Part shown: one piece after another, positions 21,168-28,243 of the stretch
Layout of the letters: every line of letters starts with the position of its first letter
Numbering within the stretch: the first letter of the stretch is position 1
Assembly: GCA_035461905.1 (NCBI GenBank)
Contig: DATHUV010000088.1
Coordinates: forward strand, 10,522-74,521
Length of the DNA: 64,000 nt
Source: Acidimicrobiia bacterium
GTDB taxonomy: Bacteria; Actinomycetota; Acidimicrobiia; Spongiisociales; UBA5794
Reading direction: 5' to 3'
Translations under genes and position numbers: made by a program
The notes under the pieces: generated by a model
What the model saw: the letters and a program-made list of their open reading frames with translations, nothing else
Told to the model about the DNA's origin: nothing
Database searches by the model: none

Positions 21168-23105
21168 TCAGACGAACCGATCGAGCCAACCGAGGAACTC
21201 ACCCCACCAGTGGAGCGCGTTGTCTCGTCGCTCGATCCAATGGCCCTCGTCGCCGTAGTACACGAGCCTCGTCGGGACTCCCTTCGCCTTGAGGAGCCCG
21301 TAGAGGGTCAGTCCCTGGGTGATGACGACCCTGTAGTCCATCTCGCCATGGATCACCAGGGTTGGCGTCACAACGTCATGGGTATGCGCCATGGGTGACC
21401 ACCGATTCACGGCGTCCATGTCCTCCCACGGAGTGCCGCCCATGGCGATGTCTCGACCCTCCGTGTGGTCAGAGGCGTACTGGCCGAGGAGGTCGGTCAC
21501 ACCCGCGTGGCAGATGGCTGCCGCGTAGCGGTCAGTGAGGGTGGTGATCCACGTCACCAGATACCCACCGTACGATCCTCCGGCGATGGCCATGCGATCA
21601 GGGTCGATGGTCCCGAGCGAGAGCATGTGGTCGGTCGCCGCCTCGATGTCGATTGCGGGTCGGTCGCCCCAGCTCCCGCGGATGCTGCGGGTGAATGCGT
21701 CGCCGAACGATGACGAGCCATGGAAGTTGACCGAGATGACGACGTATCCCGCTGCGGCCATGACCTGGGGATTCCATCGCCAATGCCAGTTGTCCATGAC
21801 ACCGTTGTGCGGCCCTCCATGGACGTTGTGGAGAAGCGGCCACATGGTGGCTTCGTGGAAGTCAGGGGGCTCCACGACGAATGCCTGGATCTGGGCCCCG
21901 TCCGCCCCCTCGAACGTCACCTCCTTCGCAGGGCGAAGGGCAACCCCGGCGAGCGCGGCGTCGTTGAAGGTCGAGACGATCGTCGTCGTACCGCCGCAGG
22001 TGACGGCGACCTCCGCAGGGGCTGCCATCGACTCGTGACGATGCCAGTAGCAGTCGAGGCCCACCCTCGGGCCATGGTTGGAACCCGTCGAGGTCTGGGG
22101 TATCGGCGTACCACCGTCCATGGCGAGGGTGAAGATGCGGACGCGACCCTCGTCCTCTGCGTGGAAGACGAGGGCATCGTCATCGATGAACTCCCAACCG
22201 CCTGCCGAGCGGTCCCAAGCTGCCGTCAGGACTTCCTCTGCACCGGTGGGGAGGTGGTGGGACACGATCCGCACGAGGTCCGCGTAATACGCATGCTCGT
22301 ACTGGACGCCGTACACGAGCGTGGACCCGTCCGGCGACACCCTCGGACGGTACTGCTGCACCGACTCGCCGGTCGGGATGCGTTCGATGTCGCCGCCCGC
22401 TGTGGGCACCCGGTGGAGCGAGAAGCGCATGTGCTCCCACGGCTCCGGGTTGTCGTCGAGGGTGAAGATGGCCCACTGCCCGTCGGGGGTGACCGTGAAG
22501 GACTCACCGACGTCTTCGAGCCCGATCAGTCGGTCGAGACCAGGCGTGAGGTGATGGGCGGACTCGTCATCGAGATCGATGCGAAACAGATGGTCGATGC
22601 GCCCATCGACGAGCCACTTCTTCCAATGCCGGAACACGCGGTCCTCGGTGGCGATCGGACGTGTGGTGTCCTTGCGTGCCTCCTGCTCATCAACGGTGGC
22701 TTCGACGCTCGGGTAGCCGCGGAGAAGGGGAGCGGACACGATGAGCGCGTCGCCGCCCGGCATCCACGTCACGGAACTCGCTCCGAGGGGTAGGTCGCTC
22801 ACCTTGAAGGCCTCCCCACCCGCAAGGCTCATCACGTACACCTGTGCAGGCTCATCATCGATCGATCCGAGGAACGCGATGCGGGTCCCGTCCGGCGACG
22901 GGGCAGGTGACGTCGACGAACGATCGTCCGATGTCAGCCGTACGGACGTGCCCGTCCTATCGATCGAATAGATCGTCGAGTGGGCCTTCCCCTCTTCGCG
23001 GTAGGAAACCACTGGCACGACGACCTTCGTCGTCCCCGGAACGTGCTCGGGTTGTCCCACCCGCTGCAACGACCACAGATCCTCGGCGGTGATAGGTCTG
23101 CCCAT
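21168..23105 (-). CDS. S9 family serine peptidase (prolyl oligopeptidase / acylaminoacyl-peptidase-like)
   Basis: 645 aa. N-terminal beta-propeller region and C-terminal alpha/beta hydrolase domain with nucleophile motif GGSYGGYL. Confidence 0.85.
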   Translation of the reverse strand: MGRPITAEDLWSLQRVGQPEHVPGTTKVVVPVVSYREEGKAHSTIYSIDRTGTSVRLTSDDRSSTSPAPSPDGTRIAFLGSIDDEPAQVYVMSLAGGEAFKVSDLPLGASSVTWMPGGDALIVSAPLLRGYPSVEATVDEQEARKDTTRPIATEDRVFRHWKKWLVDGRIDHLFRIDLDDESAHHLTPGLDRLIGLEDVGESFTVTPDGQWAIFTLDDNPEPWEHMRFSLHRVPTAGGDIERIPTGESVQQYRPRVSPDGSTLVYGVQYEHAYYADLVRIVSHHLPTGAEEVLTAAWDRSAGGWEFIDDDALVFHAEDEGRVRIFTLAMDGGTPIPQTSTGSNHGPRVGLDCYWHRHESMAAPAEVAVTCGGTTTIVSTFNDAALAGVALRPAKEVTFEGADGAQIQAFVVEPPDFHEATMWPLLHNVHGGPHNGVMDNWHWRWNPQVMAAAGYVVISVNFHGSSSFGDAFTRSIRGSWGDRPAIDIEAATDHMLSLGTIDPDRMAIAGGSYGGYLVTWITTLTDRYAAAICHAGVTDLLGQYASDHTEGRDIAMGGTPWEDMDAVNRWSPMAHTHDVVTPTLVIHGEMDYRVVITQGLTLYGLLKAKGVPTRLVYYGDEGHWIERRDNALHWWGEFLGWLDRFV

Positions 23106-23312
23106 TGACTCTCCTTGCTCGATCGTCCAAGGATTGCAGACCGTGGCGCCGTGCGCTCCCCGAGCCGATCAGCGTCGCGCCGGCGATCCGGCTGGTACCG
23201 TTTCCGCAAAGGCGTGGTGGCATTCGTCCTGCGGACCCGCGGTCGAGCCCGATGCGCCGGAACCGGTGGGTACATGCCGAGATCCCAACCCTCGGTGTCT
23301 CCGTGGCACGTG

Positions 23313-24788
23313 ATGCCCCGATGTCTCGGTGGCGTGCTCTGCCTCGTCGTTGCGCTCACCTCGTGCACCACAGCGTCCGATGCGAGGAATCCCGAGGTGT
23401 GGGGTGATGAGTCGGTCGCCTACTTCGACCGGTTGTCGGAGGCGTACCTCGCGAACGACTCGTATGGCGTGCTCGACTTCTACACGCCGGACGCCGCGAT
23501 CGAGATGTGGCGCGGTGACAACCGCGGAGGCTGGCCGATCCCCGAGCTACTGACATGGAACTCATCGGATCTCGGCCTGACCGTGGAGTCGGTGCATCTG
23601 AGCGGCTCCGGAGCGCTGAACCTCGTTCTGTGGCCGACCAATGGCCGTCGTGGGGCGGTGGAGAGCGTGATCGAGGACGGTCGGATCACGAGGGAGGTCG
23701 CATACGAAACCGGTGGATCCCTCGGCAGGAGCCTCCGCGCGCAGTTCACGACGGTGTCGACCTATGAGGGGTTCCAAACGACGTATGCCTCGGCGTGGTC
23801 GGTTGACGAGCGGACGGCTGTCGAGGCCCTGTATGCGCCCGGGGCGGTCGTTCACGACTCCCTGGTAGGGATCACGAACGCAGATGTCGAAACCCTCATC
23901 GACTCGGGCGGAGGGATCGTCTGGGACCCGGCAACGGTATCGCAGGTCGACGACGGCGGTGCCGGGTTCGAGGATCGTGCGTTGTTCCTTGGGCCGGCTG
24001 AGTACGGCGTTGACCCGGGGCGCGCTGTCGGCGTGTTCAAGGTCACCGATTCCACTGGGTGTGAGCAGCAGGTGGCCATTCGGTGGACGCTCGAGGGCGG
24101 TGCCATCGTCGAGGAGGTCCGGTACCGAGAGATCGAGTCGTTCCGAACCTGCAGTCAGGCTTCTCTCCCCGAGGGATGGTGGACGGGTCTGTCGCTTCCT
24201 CCTCCATCCGATCAGGTCGTCACGGGCACGTTGACGACGCCATCGGGTCGCGAGATCGATGTGCACAACGGAACGACGGCGCTCGAGGACCTCCTCGTGT
24301 GGGGCCTCGGCCGCTATCAGAGTGCTGGCCTTGCCGAACCCAGGATGGACGCTGTGACCTTCCAACCGAGCCGGCGATGCGAGGGACGGTCGGGCCGCGT
24401 CCTCGACGACGGGAACCGACGCGAGCTGTTCGTGTGCATGTACGAGAGCGACATATGCACGCGCATCGAGCGTCCGTGCGACACTCCGGCGACGGCGGTA
24501 CGCGTGGCCTTCCTCCACGAGCTCGGGCACGCGTGGATGATCGACAACCTCACCGAAGAGATGGAGGAGGAGCTGCTCGAGATCTCGGGTCGCGACGTGT
24601 GGGACGACCACGATGTCCCATGGGTCGACCGTGGTGTCGAGTACGCAGCCGACGTCCTTGCGTGGGGACTGCTCGAGGAGCCGCTTGCCATGGTCCGCAT
24701 CGGCTCACCACCGTGCACCGAACTGGCGGCCGCCTACGAGGTCCTCACCGGGGATCCTCCACCAAGGGGACCCGCCTCATGCCCTTGA
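23313..24788 (+). CDS. putative lipoprotein with two NTF2/SnoaL-like segments and a C-terminal HExxH (zincin-like) motif
   Basis: ORF 23115..24788. Signal/lipobox MPRCLGGVLCLVVALTSC (ATG 23313; alternative ATG 23274). FLHELGHAWMIDNL near the C-terminus. Domain calls are by eye only. Confidence 0.55.
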   Translation: MPRCLGGVLCLVVALTSCTTASDARNPEVWGDESVAYFDRLSEAYLANDSYGVLDFYTPDAAIEMWRGDNRGGWPIPELLTWNSSDLGLTVESVHLSGSGALNLVLWPTNGRRGAVESVIEDGRITREVAYETGGSLGRSLRAQFTTVSTYEGFQTTYASAWSVDERTAVEALYAPGAVVHDSLVGITNADVETLIDSGGGIVWDPATVSQVDDGGAGFEDRALFLGPAEYGVDPGRAVGVFKVTDSTGCEQQVAIRWTLEGGAIVEEVRYREIESFRTCSQASLPEGWWTGLSLPPPSDQVVTGTLTTPSGREIDVHNGTTALEDLLVWGLGRYQSAGLAEPRMDAVTFQPSRRCEGRSGRVLDDGNRRELFVCMYESDICTRIERPCDTPATAVRVAFLHELGHAWMIDNLTEEMEEELLEISGRDVWDDHDVPWVDRGVEYAADVLAWGLLEEPLAMVRIGSPPCTELAAAYEVLTGDPPPRGPASCP

Positions 24789-26356
24789 GCACGCTCTTCC
24801 GCTCGAAGGAGGCCGAGGACGAGGCCCTCCGCAACGGCCGTCCAGGAGGCATCGATGATGTTCTGGTGGACCCCGACGCAGCCCCACTCCGACTCGACGT
24901 CCGAGTGTGAGGTGAGGACCCTGACCCGTGCGCTCGTTCCGTCGGATCCGTCGAGGTCCCTGACGCGATAGTCGGTCAGCTTGATGGCATCGACGACGGG
25001 GTATCGGTCCCGAAGCGCCGCCCGGAGGGCACGGTCGAGTGCCGAGACAGGACCGTCCCCCTCACGAGTCGAAACGACCCGCTCGTCGCCGACACGGACC
25101 TTGACGGTGGCTTCTGCGGTCACCTCACCGTGACGGTGCTCGACGAACACCCGGTACGACTCGAGGTCGAAGAAGTCCTGCTCCCAGCCCATGACACGGC
25201 GTGTGATCAACTCGAAGGAGCCGTCCGCAGCTTCGAAGAGATACCCCTCGTGCTCTCTCACCTTGACCTCGTCGACCACGGCTTGAGCCTGCTCCGGGGT
25301 GAGATCCAGACCAGACGCCCTGGCCTTGGCAAGGACGGTCGACCTGCCAGCGAGCTCCGAAACGACCATGCGTGTCGAGTTGCCCACCGTTGCGGGATCC
25401 AGGTGCTCATACGCGTCGGGTCGGCGTGCAAGAGCGCTCGTGTGAAGGCCCGCCTTGTGTGTGAAGGCAGACGAACCGACGTACGGAAGGTGAGGATCGA
25501 GGCCCAGGTTGATCACGTCCGCGACGTGGTGGGACACCGTCGTGAGCCGTGAAATGCGTTCCGCGGGGATCGTCTCGATGCCCATCTTCACGGAGAGGTT
25601 CGGGATCACCGAGCACAGGTCTGCGTTCCCCGTGCGCTCCCCGTACCCGTTCACGCATCCCTGGACCTGATGGACTCCGGCACGAACGGCGACGAGGGAG
25701 TTCCCGACTGCGAGCCCTGAGTCGTTGTGGAAGTGGCATCCGTACGTCGCTTCGGGAATGGACTCCGTGACCTCACCGATGATGCGTTCGACCTCGTGGC
25801 CGAGGAAGCCGCCATTCGTGTCACACATGACGAGCCTCGTCGCCCCGGCATCGTGCGCCGCCCTCAGTGCGGCCACGGCGAAGTCGGGGTTCGATCGATA
25901 GCCGTCGAAGAAATGCTCGGCGTCGAAGAAGACCTCCCGATCGTGGTCGCGGAAGAAGGAGATGGTGTCGGCGATCATCTCGATCGCCTCGCGGTGGTCC
26001 GTTCGCAGAGCGTGCTCGACGTGGTAGTCCCAGGTCTTTCCGACGATGCACACGGTGGACGTACCGGCCTCGAGGAGCGCAACGACCTGGTCGTCATCGT
26101 CTGGCCTGACCCCGCTTCGCCTCGTCGATCCGAAGGCGACGAGCTCGGCCGTGGCGAGCGTGAGCTCTGAACGGGCCCGCTTGAAGAATTCGTCGTCCTT
26201 GGGGTTGGCGCCGGGCCAACCGCCCTCGATGTACGCGACGCCGAGATCGTCGAGCAGACCGCAGATGGTGAGCTTGTCCCCGACGGTCAGGGAAATGCCC
26301 TCCTGCTGCGTTCCGTCACGCAGCGTGGTGTCGTAGATCTCGACACGGCTTGTCAT
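24734..26356 (-). CDS. cimA: citramalate synthase (LeuA/CimA family, LeuA_allo type)
   Basis: ORF 24734..26410. Starts MTSRVEIYDTTLRDGTQQEGISLTVGDKL (ATG 26356). HFHNDSGLAVGNSL and a C-terminal LeuA-dimer-like regulatory domain. The call is supported by the Ile-rich leader upstream. Confidence 0.85.
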   Translation of the reverse strand: MTSRVEIYDTTLRDGTQQEGISLTVGDKLTICGLLDDLGVAYIEGGWPGANPKDDEFFKRARSELTLATAELVAFGSTRRSGVRPDDDDQVVALLEAGTSTVCIVGKTWDYHVEHALRTDHREAIEMIADTISFFRDHDREVFFDAEHFFDGYRSNPDFAVAALRAAHDAGATRLVMCDTNGGFLGHEVERIIGEVTESIPEATYGCHFHNDSGLAVGNSLVAVRAGVHQVQGCVNGYGERTGNADLCSVIPNLSVKMGIETIPAERISRLTTVSHHVADVINLGLDPHLPYVGSSAFTHKAGLHTSALARRPDAYEHLDPATVGNSTRMVVSELAGRSTVLAKARASGLDLTPEQAQAVVDEVKVREHEGYLFEAADGSFELITRRVMGWEQDFFDLESYRVFVEHRHGEVTAEATVKVRVGDERVVSTREGDGPVSALDRALRAALRDRYPVVDAIKLTDYRVRDLDGSDGTSARVRVLTSHSDVESEWGCVGVHQNIIDASWTAVAEGLVLGLLRAEERAQGHEAGPLGGGSPVRTS

Positions 26357-26366
26357 GGAGCGCCCT

Positions 26367-26400
26367 TTCAAACAAAGAACCCTCCGGGAGCGGAGGGTTC
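26367..26400 (-). terminator. intrinsic-terminator-like hairpin plus U tract inside the cimA 5' leader (attenuator)
   Basis: The minus strand reads GAACCCUCCG-CUCC-CGGAGGGUUC followed by UUUGUUUG. It ends about 10 nt before the cimA ATG. Confidence 0.7.
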
Positions 26401-26404
26401 GCCA

Positions 26405-26431
26405 GCGCACACGTCTCTGAGACGTGTGCGC
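26405..26431 (-). promoter_or_regulatory. 12-bp perfect hairpin 1 nt after the leader-peptide stop codon (attenuator element)
   Basis: The minus strand reads GCGCACACGUCU-CAG-AGACGUGUGCGC, directly following UAG-G of the leader ORF. Confidence 0.65.
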
Positions 26432-26432
26432 C

Positions 26433-26471
26433 CTACGTAATGATGATGACGGTTGTCATGATGGTGTTCAT
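26433..26471 (-). CDS. 12-codon leader peptide MNTIMTTVIIIT (Ile/Thr/Val-rich) upstream of cimA
   Basis: The minus strand reads ATG AAC ACC ATC ATG ACA ACC GTC ATC ATC ATT ACG TAG, giving 4 Ile, 4 Thr and 1 Val in 12 codons. It is visible as the C-terminal tail of track ORF 26433..27533. Confidence 0.65.
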   Translation of the reverse strand: MNTIMTTVIIIT

Positions 26472-26481
26472 CGGTCCGGCG

Positions 26482-26510
26482 AGTATGCACCTGTCCGGTT
26501 GTCTCGTCAA
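26482..26510 (-). promoter_or_regulatory. sigma-70-type promoter for the cimA leader transcript
   Basis: The minus strand has TTGACG (26510-26505), a 17-nt spacer and CATACT (26487-26482). The -10 ends 10 nt before the leader ATG, so the mRNA would be leaderless or have a very short leader. Confidence 0.5.
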
Positions 26511-26552
26511 TTCGAGACACTCTCGGCGGGCGTGGGGCCCTACGATCGCACC

Positions 26553-27251
26553 ATGGCTGGTCAGGGATCCCAGGTAGGAACGCTGCGCGAGAAACCGCTG
26601 CATGCGGCGCTCAAGCGATGGTGCGCGCGGCCCGGAGACCGCCTCGAGGTGGCTGTCGAGGGGTTCGTGGTCGACGTCGTCCGTGACGACCTGCTGATCG
26701 TGGTACAGCCGAAGGTCTTCTCGTCGATGAAGCGCAAACTCGTGACGTTGGTGACGGCCGGCTACCGAATCCGGATCGTGCACCCGATCTCGCTCGACAC
26801 GACGATCATCAAGGTCGACGATGCAGGGCAGGTCCTGGGTGAACGCCGCTCCCCGCGCCACGGCCACCCGACCGACCTCTTCGCCGAGCTCGTCAGCTTC
26901 CCGTCCCTGATCGAACACCCCGGTCTCGAGATCGAGCTCGTCATGGTGCGTGACGAGCAGCTCAGGACCCATGACCCGTCGAAGGCATGGCGTCGGCGGG
27001 GATGGGTGATCGTGGAGCGTCGGCTGATCGAGGTCGTCGACTCGATGCTCATCGGTGGTGTCGAGGACTTGTGCGATCTCCTCCCCACAACGCTGCCTCC
27101 GACCTTCACGACCGCGGATCTGGCCGTGGCGATGGGACGCCCGCGGCGGATCGCCCAGCAGATGGCATACTGCCTCCGAGACGCCGGTGGCATCCGACAG
27201 GTGGGGAAAAGAGGCAACGCCGTGGAGTACGAGCGCCAATGGACGCGATGA
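26553..27251 (+). CDS. conserved hypothetical protein (nuclease-like N-terminal region, winged-helix-like C-terminus)
   Basis: ORF 26424..27251. Starts MAGQGSQVGTLREKPLHAALKRW (ATG 26553). LEVAVEGFVVDVVRDDLLIVVQPK core; C-terminal FTTADLAVAMGRPRRIAQQMAYCLRDAGGIRQVGKRGNAVEYE. The stop overlaps the trpS ATG (ATGA). Confidence 0.55.
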   Translation: MAGQGSQVGTLREKPLHAALKRWCARPGDRLEVAVEGFVVDVVRDDLLIVVQPKVFSSMKRKLVTLVTAGYRIRIVHPISLDTTIIKVDDAGQVLGERRSPRHGHPTDLFAELVSFPSLIEHPGLEIELVMVRDEQLRTHDPSKAWRRRGWVIVERRLIEVVDSMLIGGVEDLCDLLPTTLPPTFTTADLAVAMGRPRRIAQQMAYCLRDAGGIRQVGKRGNAVEYERQWTR

Positions 27252-28243
27252 TCCCGGGCGCCATGCCCCGCATCTTCTCGGGCGTGCAACCCACGGGGAA
27301 CATCCACCTCGGGAACTACCTCGGTGCGTTCCGTAATTGGGTGCGGCTCCAGGACGACCACGACTCGATCTACTGCATCGTCGACCTCCACGCGATGACG
27401 GTGGAGTACGACCCTGCGGGGCTCGAGAAGGCGCGGATCGAGACTGCGAAGGTGCTCCTCGCCCTCGGCGTCGATCCCGGACGCTCCCTTCTGTACACCC
27501 AGAGCCAGGTGATGGAGCACTCCGAGCTGGCATGGATCCTCGGCACGATGACCCCGATGGGTGTGCTCAACCGCATGACGCAGTTCAAGGACAAGACCGA
27601 CAAGGGCTTTGCGGCCAATCTGGGTCTGTACTCGTATCCGGTCCTGATGGCTGCCGACATCCTCCTCTATCGGGCCAACCTCGTGCCGATCGGCGACGAT
27701 CAACGTCAGCACCTGGAGATGACGCGGGATCTCGCGGAGCGCTTCAACAACCGCTTTGGTGACACGTTCCCCATCCCGGAGCCCTACATCCCCGAGAGGG
27801 CCGCTCGGGTCATGTCACTGACCGATCCGACATCCAAGATGTCGAAGTCCGATCCCCAGGAGAAGTCCCGTATCTCGATTCTCGACGGGCCGGACGTCAT
27901 GAGGAAGCGGATCCGATCGGCAGTCACCGACAGCGACCCCGAGGTCCGCTACGACGTCGCGGCGAAGCCGGGTATCTCGAACCTCCTCGACATCATGTCT
28001 GCGTGCACCGGCCGCCCGATCGACGACCTCGTCTCCGAGTATGCCGACCGGGGCTACGGCGTGTTCAAGGACGCGGTTGCCGACGCCGTCATCGAGGAGC
28101 TCGCACCCTTCCGGACCGCATTGACTGGATTGCGCACCGACGATGTCCGCAGCGTCCTGCACGAGTCCGGGATCAAGGGCCGGGAGCTCGCCGCCGGGTA
28201 CATGCGCGAGGTTCGCACGGCGGTTGGCCTGAAGGGGTTCTGA
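27248..28243 (+). CDS. trpS: tryptophan--tRNA ligase
   Basis: ORF 26987..28243. FSGVQPTGNIHLGNYLG (HIGH-type) and KMSKS motifs. ATG 27248 overlaps the upstream stop; ATG 27263 is an alternative. Confidence 0.92.
   Translation: MIPGAMPRIFSGVQPTGNIHLGNYLGAFRNWVRLQDDHDSIYCIVDLHAMTVEYDPAGLEKARIETAKVLLALGVDPGRSLLYTQSQVMEHSELAWILGTMTPMGVLNRMTQFKDKTDKGFAANLGLYSYPVLMAADILLYRANLVPIGDDQRQHLEMTRDLAERFNNRFGDTFPIPEPYIPERAARVMSLTDPTSKMSKSDPQEKSRISILDGPDVMRKRIRSAVTDSDPEVRYDVAAKPGISNLLDIMSACTGRPIDDLVSEYADRGYGVFKDAVADAVIEELAPFRTALTGLRTDDVRSVLHESGIKGRELAAGYMREVRTAVGLKGF

Follow-up and report, generated by a model that had tools for sequence, protein, structure and literature searches.

Background

The thr and ilv leaders of E. 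coli follow a four-region design (1:2, 2:3 and 3:4 pairings) with the sensor codons inside region 1. In pyrBI and pyrE of enterobacteria the open reading frame (ORF) of the leader extends as far as the terminator or passes through it, and what is sensed is the speed of RNA polymerase (UTP). Citramalate synthase, the product of cimA, is the first enzyme of the isoleucine route that bypasses threonine. This work concerns the region upstream of cimA in a stretch of 64,000 nt from an Acidimicrobiia bacterium (contig DATHUV010000088.1, positions 10,522 to 74,521), hereafter called the window, in which a short Ile-rich ORF and two hairpins, designated H1 and T, precede the gene. The initial annotation had proposed a ribosome-mediated attenuator at this place. 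The proposal is supported by conservation of the element in 69 of 80 genomes, by covariation, by the pattern of Ile codons and by reuse of the same cassette at ilvB, and on such comparative grounds cimA is very probably subject to ribosome-mediated, Ile-responsive leader-peptide attenuation.

Leader-peptide control of ilvB is already known in other Actinomycetota. [quoted passage not shown] The C. glutamicum ilvBNC leader contains overlapping terminator, antiterminator and anti-antiterminator hairpins (PMC11857589), and an upstream ORF (uORF) with a three-hairpin model has been described for Corynebacterium ilvB (PMC10272879, PMC11857589). Seliverstov et al. (2005) predicted ilvB leader peptides in actinobacteria, with ORFs overlapping the terminator and with parts of the attenuator often missing in the phylum (PMC1262725). 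A different design is represented by mycobacterial poly-Cys ORFs, which are reported to unmask a downstream ribosome-binding site (RBS) and involve no terminator (10.1101/834739).

Organization of the cimA leader

All parts of the leader are read on the minus strand. A consensus scan placed the -35 box TTGACG at 26505..26510 and, behind a 17-nt spacer, the -10 box CATACT at 26482..26487; in almost every related locus TTGAC stands equally far from the -10 box, and CATACT or a near variant of it is kept in relatives. A gap of 10 nt without a Shine-Dalgarno (SD) motif (26472..26481) separates the -10 box from a 12-codon ORF (26433..26471) which encodes MNTIMTTVIIIT and ends with TAG. Its codons are ATG AAC ACC ATC ATG ACA ACC GTC ATC ATC ATT ACG TAG, and homologous ORFs of 7-14 aa were found in 69 loci. 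The consecutive Ile codons ATC ATC ATT (26439..26447) occupy positions -4, -3 and -2 from the stop and are followed by one spacer codon, ACG.

A single G (26432) stands between TAG and the core of H1 (26404..26432), a hairpin of 12 Watson-Crick pairs plus a G.U pair, with the loop CAG, which adjoins the stop codon. The core, from 26431 to 26405, reads GCGCACACGTCT-CAG-AGACGTGTGCGC in DNA and GCGCACACGUCU-CAG-AGACGUGUGCGC in RNA, and the flanking G 26432 and T 26404 can extend it from 12 to 13 bp via the G.U pair. The spacer GGC (26401..26403) leads to the predicted terminator hairpin T (26377..26400), recovered by a terminator scan and by folding, with a GC-rich 10-bp stem (GAACCCTCCG-CTCC-CGGAGGGTTC in DNA, GAACCCUCCG-CUCC-CGGAGGGUUC in RNA). 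An interrupted U tract (26369..26376; DNA TTTGTTTG, RNA UUUGUUUG), also reported by the terminator scan, follows T and ends 12 nt before the cimA ATG. The likely RBS of cimA is AAAGGG (26363..26368), with purine-rich GGAG or GAAGG motifs at the same place in relatives. The promoter, the 12-codon ORF, the 12-bp hairpin and the terminator of the initial annotation were all found at the positions given there, base for base.

In 1.4 kb the leader promoter was the single promoter matching the consensus (chance expectation 0.1) and T was the single terminator found (chance expectation 0.4). The 123-nt leader RNA folds with an energy of -54.1 kcal/mol, compared to -36.3 +/- 3.4 for shuffled sequences (z = -5.3), and in ensemble folds the RBS region is about 50 % unpaired (mean 51 %).

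The downstream gene (24734..26356, minus strand) encodes a protein of 540 aa with HMGL-like, HCS_D2 and LeuA_dimer Pfam domains. It scored 651.5 bits against TIGR00977 (cutoff 450) and stayed below the own cutoff of every isopropylmalate and homocitrate synthase model, so that its assignment as cimA holds at the equivalog level. Since the sensor of the leader is almost purely Ile, the assignment gains independent support.

Conservation and covariation in Acidimicrobiia

A protein-guided scan with one genome per species yielded 80 cimA loci, all from Acidimicrobiia-type metagenome-assembled genomes, with CimA identity to that of the window ranging from 96 to 57 %. The full order of leader parts was present upstream of cimA in 69 of these 80 species-level genomes: TTGAC, 17 or 18 nt, CATACT, 6-11 nt, an ORF of 7-14 codons, H1, T, a U tract and a purine-rich RBS. 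That the layout is kept in 69 other genomes shows it, as an arrangement of sequence elements, to lie far beyond chance. The distance from the -10 box to the leader start is 6-11 nt with a mode of 9, again without a Shine-Dalgarno motif, H1 begins 0-1 nt past the leader stop throughout the cimA family, and the spacer between H1 and T is 1-7 nt long with a mode of 4 (mis-parsed cases were re-read by eye). H1 stems of 6-14 bp with bulges and loops of 3-8 nt were found, and T stems of 9-11 bp, with imperfect U tracts after T in all members. Since the genes farther upstream vary from locus to locus, the promoter belongs to the leader ORF.

The element was absent from the ten most distant cimA loci (below 60 % identity), and at one locus, L046, the leader region is cut by a contig end. 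In L069 and L072-L080 (57-60 % identity) cimA directly follows a gene ending in ..YKDW(L/N)EYV (~230 nt upstream), which looks like a branched-chain aminotransferase gene, and has no leader of its own. L018 (1270-1500) has no cimA leader either; a unit of roughly 60 nt (CATTCCGCGGGCCAGAAAGC.GCGCCACGCGGCTCTGTAACCCTGGGTTCTGGAGCCGC) is present there in two direct copies and may be a small repeat element.

A covariance model, R1, was built to span the leader from the Ile run to the U tract. It gave one match per locus in 70 sources and one true match in the 64-kb window; no further copies of the element beyond one per locus were detected in the window or in the flanks of 180 loci. An alignment made with MAFFT only gave a poor consensus structure, and the covariance-model alignment was used instead. 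Over both hairpins, standard pairs filled 93.8 % of cells in this alignment, and compensatory double changes were seen at 14 of the 21 pairs (117 cells). The values for pairing plus compensation were equalled by none of 500 shuffles, and pairing fell to 28-64 % when the partners were slid by 1-3 columns. Taken separately, H1 had 7 of 11 modelled pairs compensated and 92.8 % of cells paired, and T had 7 of 10 and 94.8 %, respectively. The alignment used for counting pairs was fitted to the proposed structure, but the slid-partner control argues against an artefact. By the criteria of comparative analysis H1 and T are real RNA structures, because the covariation and both the shuffle and the slid-partner controls agree. 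The alignment of upstream regions that had been suggested earlier thus ended with the Ile run kept and both stems covarying.

The arms of T resemble an anti-Shine-Dalgarno/Shine-Dalgarno pair (CCCUCC/GGAGGG) which is never flipped in any member of the family. Such orientation may be the usual bias of terminators towards a C-rich 5' and a G-rich 3' arm, or it may be functional.

These data also bear on the reading in which nothing is regulated here. The 12-codon ORF shares its frame and stop codon with an ORF of 366 aa (26433..27533, minus strand), and spurious ORFs abound in high-GC genomes, so a chance ORF, or the tail of the longer one, could lie next to ordinary hairpins; H1 is moreover a perfect DNA palindrome in the window and could be a DNA operator. 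The 366-aa ORF is a shadow ORF, because it matches no family in Pfam or NCBIfam profile searches, runs antisense to the gene at 26553-27251 (plus strand) and has the conserved promoter within it. The leader ORF as the C-terminus of this ORF was rejected for the lack of a family, the antisense position and the conserved promoter that relatives have of their own. In 69 genomes with differing upstream genes the short ORF is kept, with a promoter of its own and with the Ile run at the same place. The G.U pairs, the bulges and the variable arm spacing of H1 fit RNA and eliminate the operator. Layout conservation, the covariance model, covariation and the cassette at ilvB described below effectively refute the absence of regulation, which is barely conceivable.

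Probable sensor codons of the leader peptide

Ile is found at position -2 from the stop in 65 of the 69 cimA leaders, at -3 in 60 and at -4 in 55. It makes up 28 % of leader residues as compared to 3.5 % in CimA, and Thr makes up 24 % as compared to 6.3 %. Thr occurs at positions -5 to -8 in 18-31 of the 69 leaders and at -1 in 26. Among Ile codons ATT accounts for 29 % in leaders and 8.6 % in coding sequences (odds ratio 4.3); position -4 is always ATC, and the rare ATT is usually placed at -3 or -2. Exactly one spacer codon and the stop codon separate the last Ile from H1 in 65 of the 69 leaders.

Peptide length shifts by whole codons, the Ile codons differ only synonymously (ATC/ATT) and the other residues are free, which is the pattern expected if selection acts on the decoding of Ile codons and not on the peptide itself; it also gives indirect support to translation of the ORF and to a response to limiting aminoacyl-tRNA. 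Charging of tRNA-Thr is perhaps sensed as well.

The 6-11 nt between the -10 box and the start codon fit a 5' leader of 0-4 nt, and we infer that the ORF is leaderless or nearly so; a possible parallel with leaderless ORFs is drawn from this conserved gap without a Shine-Dalgarno motif, and some ilvB versions have a true 5' untranslated region (UTR) with an SD. Of the 69 cimA leaders 51 end in TAG, as do all the ilvB leaders seen, and the G of TAG is often the first base of the GCGCAC stem. A fusion of the leader to cimA by +1 frameshift or stop read-through was also considered; the window does have an open +1 frame, but the phase between leader and cimA is not conserved (33/25/11) and the candidate was dropped.

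The same cassette precedes ilvB

An exact-pattern scan of metagenomes with the H1 3' arm plus T found many more cimA leaders and also other loci, in which the H1-T cassette stands behind the peptides MTPTNFQLVVLIT, MTATNNLSVVLIA and MMNNEQATLVLILT and the downstream gene encodes the large subunit of acetolactate synthase. To remove the bias of the pattern scan, IlvB homologues were picked by protein alone and their contigs fetched. In 5 of 5 distinct loci obtained in this way a Leu/Val/Ile-rich ORF was present (..FVVLIT, ..LVVLIT, ..LVGLIG, ..LVLID). The ilvB leader peptides use the rare codons GTA, CTT and ATT and are followed by one spacer codon, TAG, an immediate GCGCAC...GUGCGC hairpin, a spacer of 1-4 nt and the terminator (R)CCCUCC...GGAGGG with its U tract, upstream of ilvB-ilvN-ilvC. 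The cassette was located in L119 (1700-1900), L126, L134, L171, L163 (1-150) and L201-L208 (1240-1500), with peptides such as MTPTNFQLVVLIT and MITPTLVLID. In L154 it precedes ilvB-ilvN-ilvC-leuA, with ilvD divergent.

Some of these loci depart from the common order. In L154 (7800-8260, minus strand) and L139 (1-460) the leader ..LVLVLIT is followed by an ORF of about 95-124 aa (MKFEIENGDYVGTAEW...), which has no Pfam match, and then by ilvB-ilvN-ilvC-leuA. In L205 (3923-4719) a gene of the LeuA/CimA family with an HMGL-like domain replaces ilvC after ilvB-ilvN.

A cimA leader (L037) and an ilvB leader (L202) come from one assembly, GCA_942491345.1. Their stems, U tract and RBS are identical (common sequences ATCACCTAGGCGCACACG, GTGTGCGCC, CCCTCCG, GGGGGGTTTTCT and CGGAGCA), and their loops and spacers differ. 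This points to a constraint at the sequence level or to gene conversion between the two leaders.

The sensor codons track the products of the pathway, Ile at cimA and Leu, Val and Ile at ilvB, while the effector part stays constant. A swap of codons on a constant cassette is the strongest non-experimental evidence that these leaders act as amino-acid-responsive attenuators.

The constancy of the stems could also mean that they are read by a sequence-specific partner, either a protein or RNA polymerase itself, as in the case of the put RNA of phage HK022. Such a partner would recognize folded H1 and/or T and make the polymerase resist T, the ribosome merely deciding whether H1 exists. The stem sequences kept at both cimA and ilvB (GCGCAC../..GUGCGC and CCCUCC/GGAGGG) while loops and spacers drift, as well as several pairs invariant across the alignment, would suit this explanation. 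For a specific binding site, however, H1 loops of 3-8 nt and stems of 6-14 bp with bulges are unusual, there are no conserved unpaired nucleotides, doubly constrained stems drift slowly anyway, and no candidate factor was identified. A dedicated partner is rather improbable.

No antiterminator pairing in the leader

An antiterminator was sought in three ways, by 5'-truncation folds, by arm-arm duplex energies and by masking in partition-function calculations. T was never displaced when 0-42 nt were removed from the 5' side. Duplexes between an H1 arm and a T arm were weaker than those of shuffled arms (z from +0.1 to +0.7), in comparison to z of -4.5 and -4.2 for the true partners. Whichever part of the H1 5' arm was masked, the T pairs kept an ensemble probability of 0.96-0.98 in the 64 leaders so analysed. 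A classical antiterminator is excluded by these results, as T is kept in the truncations, the arms of H1 and T do not pair, and T stays paired under every mask.

H1 and T do not overlap either; they are separated by a spacer of 1-7 nt and have no nucleotides in common, and the effect of H1 cannot for this reason be strand competition. Since the truncation, duplex and masking tests show no competing helix, the two hairpins are orthogonal, apparently by selection. The initial annotation had failed to find the antiterminator pairing by eye, and this failure was correct, being a property of the family by all three tests; the folding for mutually exclusive structures that it had recommended found none.

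The 3' arm of H1 was also checked against the RBS. When truncated leaders were folded, the freed arm paired with the region of the cimA RBS for the window and for the clade L026-L042, and it could be argued that the control is post-transcriptional: T would either terminate constitutively but leakily or be a structural module, and the translation of cimA or the stability of its mRNA would be governed by the leader ORF together with H1, for instance by pairing of the freed H1 3' arm with the RBS or by a 5'-stalled ribosome shielding the mRNA from decay. Mycobacterial poly-Cys leaderless ORFs are reported to work via RBS unmasking (10.1101/834739). Family-wide, though, duplexes of the H1 3' arm with the RBS are no better than shuffles (mean z -0.09), the RBS is about half unpaired, and a conserved hairpin with a U tract directly upstream of a gene is a signature of termination control. 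Masking of the RBS by the H1 3' arm was therefore rejected as confined to the window and one clade, the RBS being unsequestered, and the post-transcriptional explanation as a whole is very unlikely.

Ribosome position and the proposed mechanism

The effect of ribosome position on H1 was modelled with footprint figures taken from the literature and general knowledge, usually about 11-13 nt of single-stranded RNA downstream of the P/A sites. The probability of H1 pairing was 0.96-0.99 with 0-2 nt masked past the stop and 0.13-0.06 with 8-11 nt masked. A modelled ribosome on codon -4 or -3 left H1 96-99 % paired, on codon -2 it touched the base of H1, which was 60-96 % paired depending on the footprint assumed, and on the stop codon it left H1 only 6-13 % paired. 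Owing to the strict spacing of the last Ile codon, the stop and H1, the hairpin would remain folded beside a stalled ribosome and be melted by one that has reached the stop codon. Its position would make H1 the 'on' element, expression being switched off when translation proceeds to the stop.

Classical logic would assign H1 the role of a pause hairpin or a part of a tandem-hairpin terminator, which only synchronises ribosome and polymerase or aids T. During starvation a stall on the last Ile codon would let the ribosome fray the base of H1 and weaken the composite terminator; in times of plenty the finished ribosome would be released fast, and H1 would have refolded by the time the U tract is transcribed. 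If the footprint is taken as 26 nt, about 5 nt of H1 are indeed masked by a ribosome on codon -2 (pairing 0.60), the interrupted U tracts suggest that T may need help, and clusters of adjacent hairpins have been reported to promote intrinsic termination (PMC8355165). On the other hand, the first hungry codons (-4 and -3) leave H1 96-99 % intact, a melting design would set the sensor codons in or beside the 5' arm whereas a spacer codon and the stop intervene in 65 of 69 leaders, and the stop codon would need no contact with H1. This helper role of H1 is unlikely.

The best explanation of the leader is probably an attenuator that reads the charging of tRNA-Ile and in which H1 couples the position of the ribosome to T. 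That folded H1 corresponds to the anti-termination state is also rather probable. The course of events given below includes a transcription start, translation of the leader, a direction of the response and, above all, a steric coupling of H1 to T, all of which we infer.

Transcription would begin at the leader ATG or a few bases ahead of it, and cimA transcription would be set by the charging of tRNA-Ile, perhaps also of tRNA-Thr. With ample Ile-tRNA the ribosome would reach UAG and unzip the 5' arm of H1. Once H1 is melted, T would fold freely behind RNA polymerase and transcription would stop at the U tract, 12 nt before cimA. With scarce Ile-tRNA the ribosome would stall on ATC-ATC-ATT, and the spacer codon together with the stop would hold it just outside H1, which would stay folded with the ribosome against its base. 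Folded H1 would loop out at least 27 nt and leave only 1-7 nt between the 5' arm of T and the stalled ribosome or the rigid helix itself. T could then not be completed in the RNA exit channel and the polymerase would read through into cimA.

A terminator hairpin must be completed inside the exit channel of the polymerase, with its base adjoining the RNA-DNA hybrid. A rigid 12-bp helix and a ribosome tethered 1-7 nt from the base of T should not fit there, whereas a ribosome at the stop, having unzipped H1, would leave about 25 nt of slack between itself and T, and T would fold. Read-through would not come from a competing RNA helix, since the two hairpins have no nucleotide in common and show no cross-pairing. 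Such steric coupling of H1 to T is a possibility put forward here tentatively from a physical model. It is likewise a guess on the doubtful side that attenuation at cimA and ilvB dispenses by design with an RNA antiterminator, H1 acting as a collapsible spacer between the stop and T. The collapsible-spacer hypothesis has the right sign and would account for the three conserved distances, for the stability of H1 and for the absence of cross-pairing.

Several points weigh against the mechanism outlined above. The RNA alone is predicted to terminate in both conditions, with a probability of T of 0.96-0.98 in an equilibrium model. With the wider footprint, a ribosome on the last Ile codon frays about 5 nt and leaves H1 60 % paired. 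The steric link is a physical argument, and literature searches found no case in which an upstream hairpin hinders a terminator that it does not overlap. The genomes compared are related, so that the counts overstate the number of independent events. The enrichment in Thr could mirror a preference at the N-terminus or the second codon, and ilvB leaders are also Thr-rich near their starts.

Genes surrounding cimA

The plus-strand gene at 26553..27251 is divergent from the leader promoter and encodes a 232-aa protein (MAGQGSQVGTLREKPLHAALKRW...) without a Pfam or NCBIfam family; trpS (~27266..28243) lies 3' of it. On the other side, a stretch of 1.6 kb (23106-24733) separates cimA from a gene for an S9 peptidase (21168-23105, minus strand). 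A long ORF on the minus strand (23562-24611) and another on the plus strand (23115-24788) lie here, both without a match in Pfam or NCBIfam. No ilvB is present in the 64-kb window.

Comparison with known systems

A search of the curated covariance models of Rfam 15, which include the T-box, gave no match with E < 2 for the leader region of the window and none with E <= 0.1 for eight cimA or ilvB leader loci. The initial annotation knew of no leader-peptide attenuator for cimA, and full-text literature searches likewise found neither a leader peptide for citramalate synthase nor attenuators in Acidimicrobiia. With the cimA leader, attenuation by a leader peptide would be described for citramalate synthase for the first time. 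New are the target, the near-pure Ile sensor and an effector architecture common with ilvB across a bacterial class. Control of no fewer than two branched-chain loci, cimA and ilvBNC, would then be exerted by a single reusable cassette with exchangeable sensor codons throughout a class of actinobacteria that is mostly uncultured, and leaders of this kind in metagenomes can be annotated by a simple rule. If the proposed coupling is true, the position of a ribosome is relayed to a terminator without alternative RNA pairing, which could be useful for the design of synthetic attenuators; a sequence-specific partner for the invariant stems, if true, would be a further twist.

The M. tuberculosis ilvB1NC leader is similar in several respects. 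It is actinobacterial, has a short uORF with branched-chain codons clustered near its end and a hairpin just past the stop, masked by the terminating ribosome and spared by the stalled one, and then a Rho-independent terminator. The ..LVVLIT peptides of the Acidimicrobiia ilvB leaders resemble the LVVI sensor motif, and H1 occupies the position of region 2 of the trp leader, which is also the antiterminator site of the M. tuberculosis ilvB1 leader. However, antiterminator and terminator are mutually exclusive in M. tuberculosis, whereas H1 and T of Acidimicrobiia share no bases and do not compete. The target is cimA, the sensor is Ile only, possibly with Thr, and the ORF starts at or next to the 5' end, in contrast to the 166-nt leader of M. 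tuberculosis. Set against both the classical and the M. tuberculosis-type designs, the cimA leader lacks one defining feature, the mutually exclusive helices.

The C. glutamicum ilvBNC leader and the predictions of Seliverstov et al. share with it an Ile/Val/Leu-rich leader peptide plus a terminator in Actinomycetota, but neither work covers cimA or Acidimicrobiia. The poly-Cys ORFs are also reported to be short actinobacterial ORFs at the 5' end with a run of codons for one amino acid by the stop and an operon-specific response; the cimA leader differs from them in its covarying terminator and unsequestered RBS.

In E. coli thrL, Thr and Ile codons dominate as well, and a ribosome stall upstream of an intrinsic terminator controls a biosynthetic operon, but unlike the thr and ilv leaders of E. 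coli the cimA leader has two independent hairpins with the sensor codons outside both. The closest precedent for the proposed coupling is provided by pyrBI and pyrE, in which a ribosome is physically near the terminator and there is no RNA antiterminator. In comparison to these leaders the cimA leader ORF ends about 30 nt earlier, and the proximity of the ribosome to the terminator would come from folding out H1.

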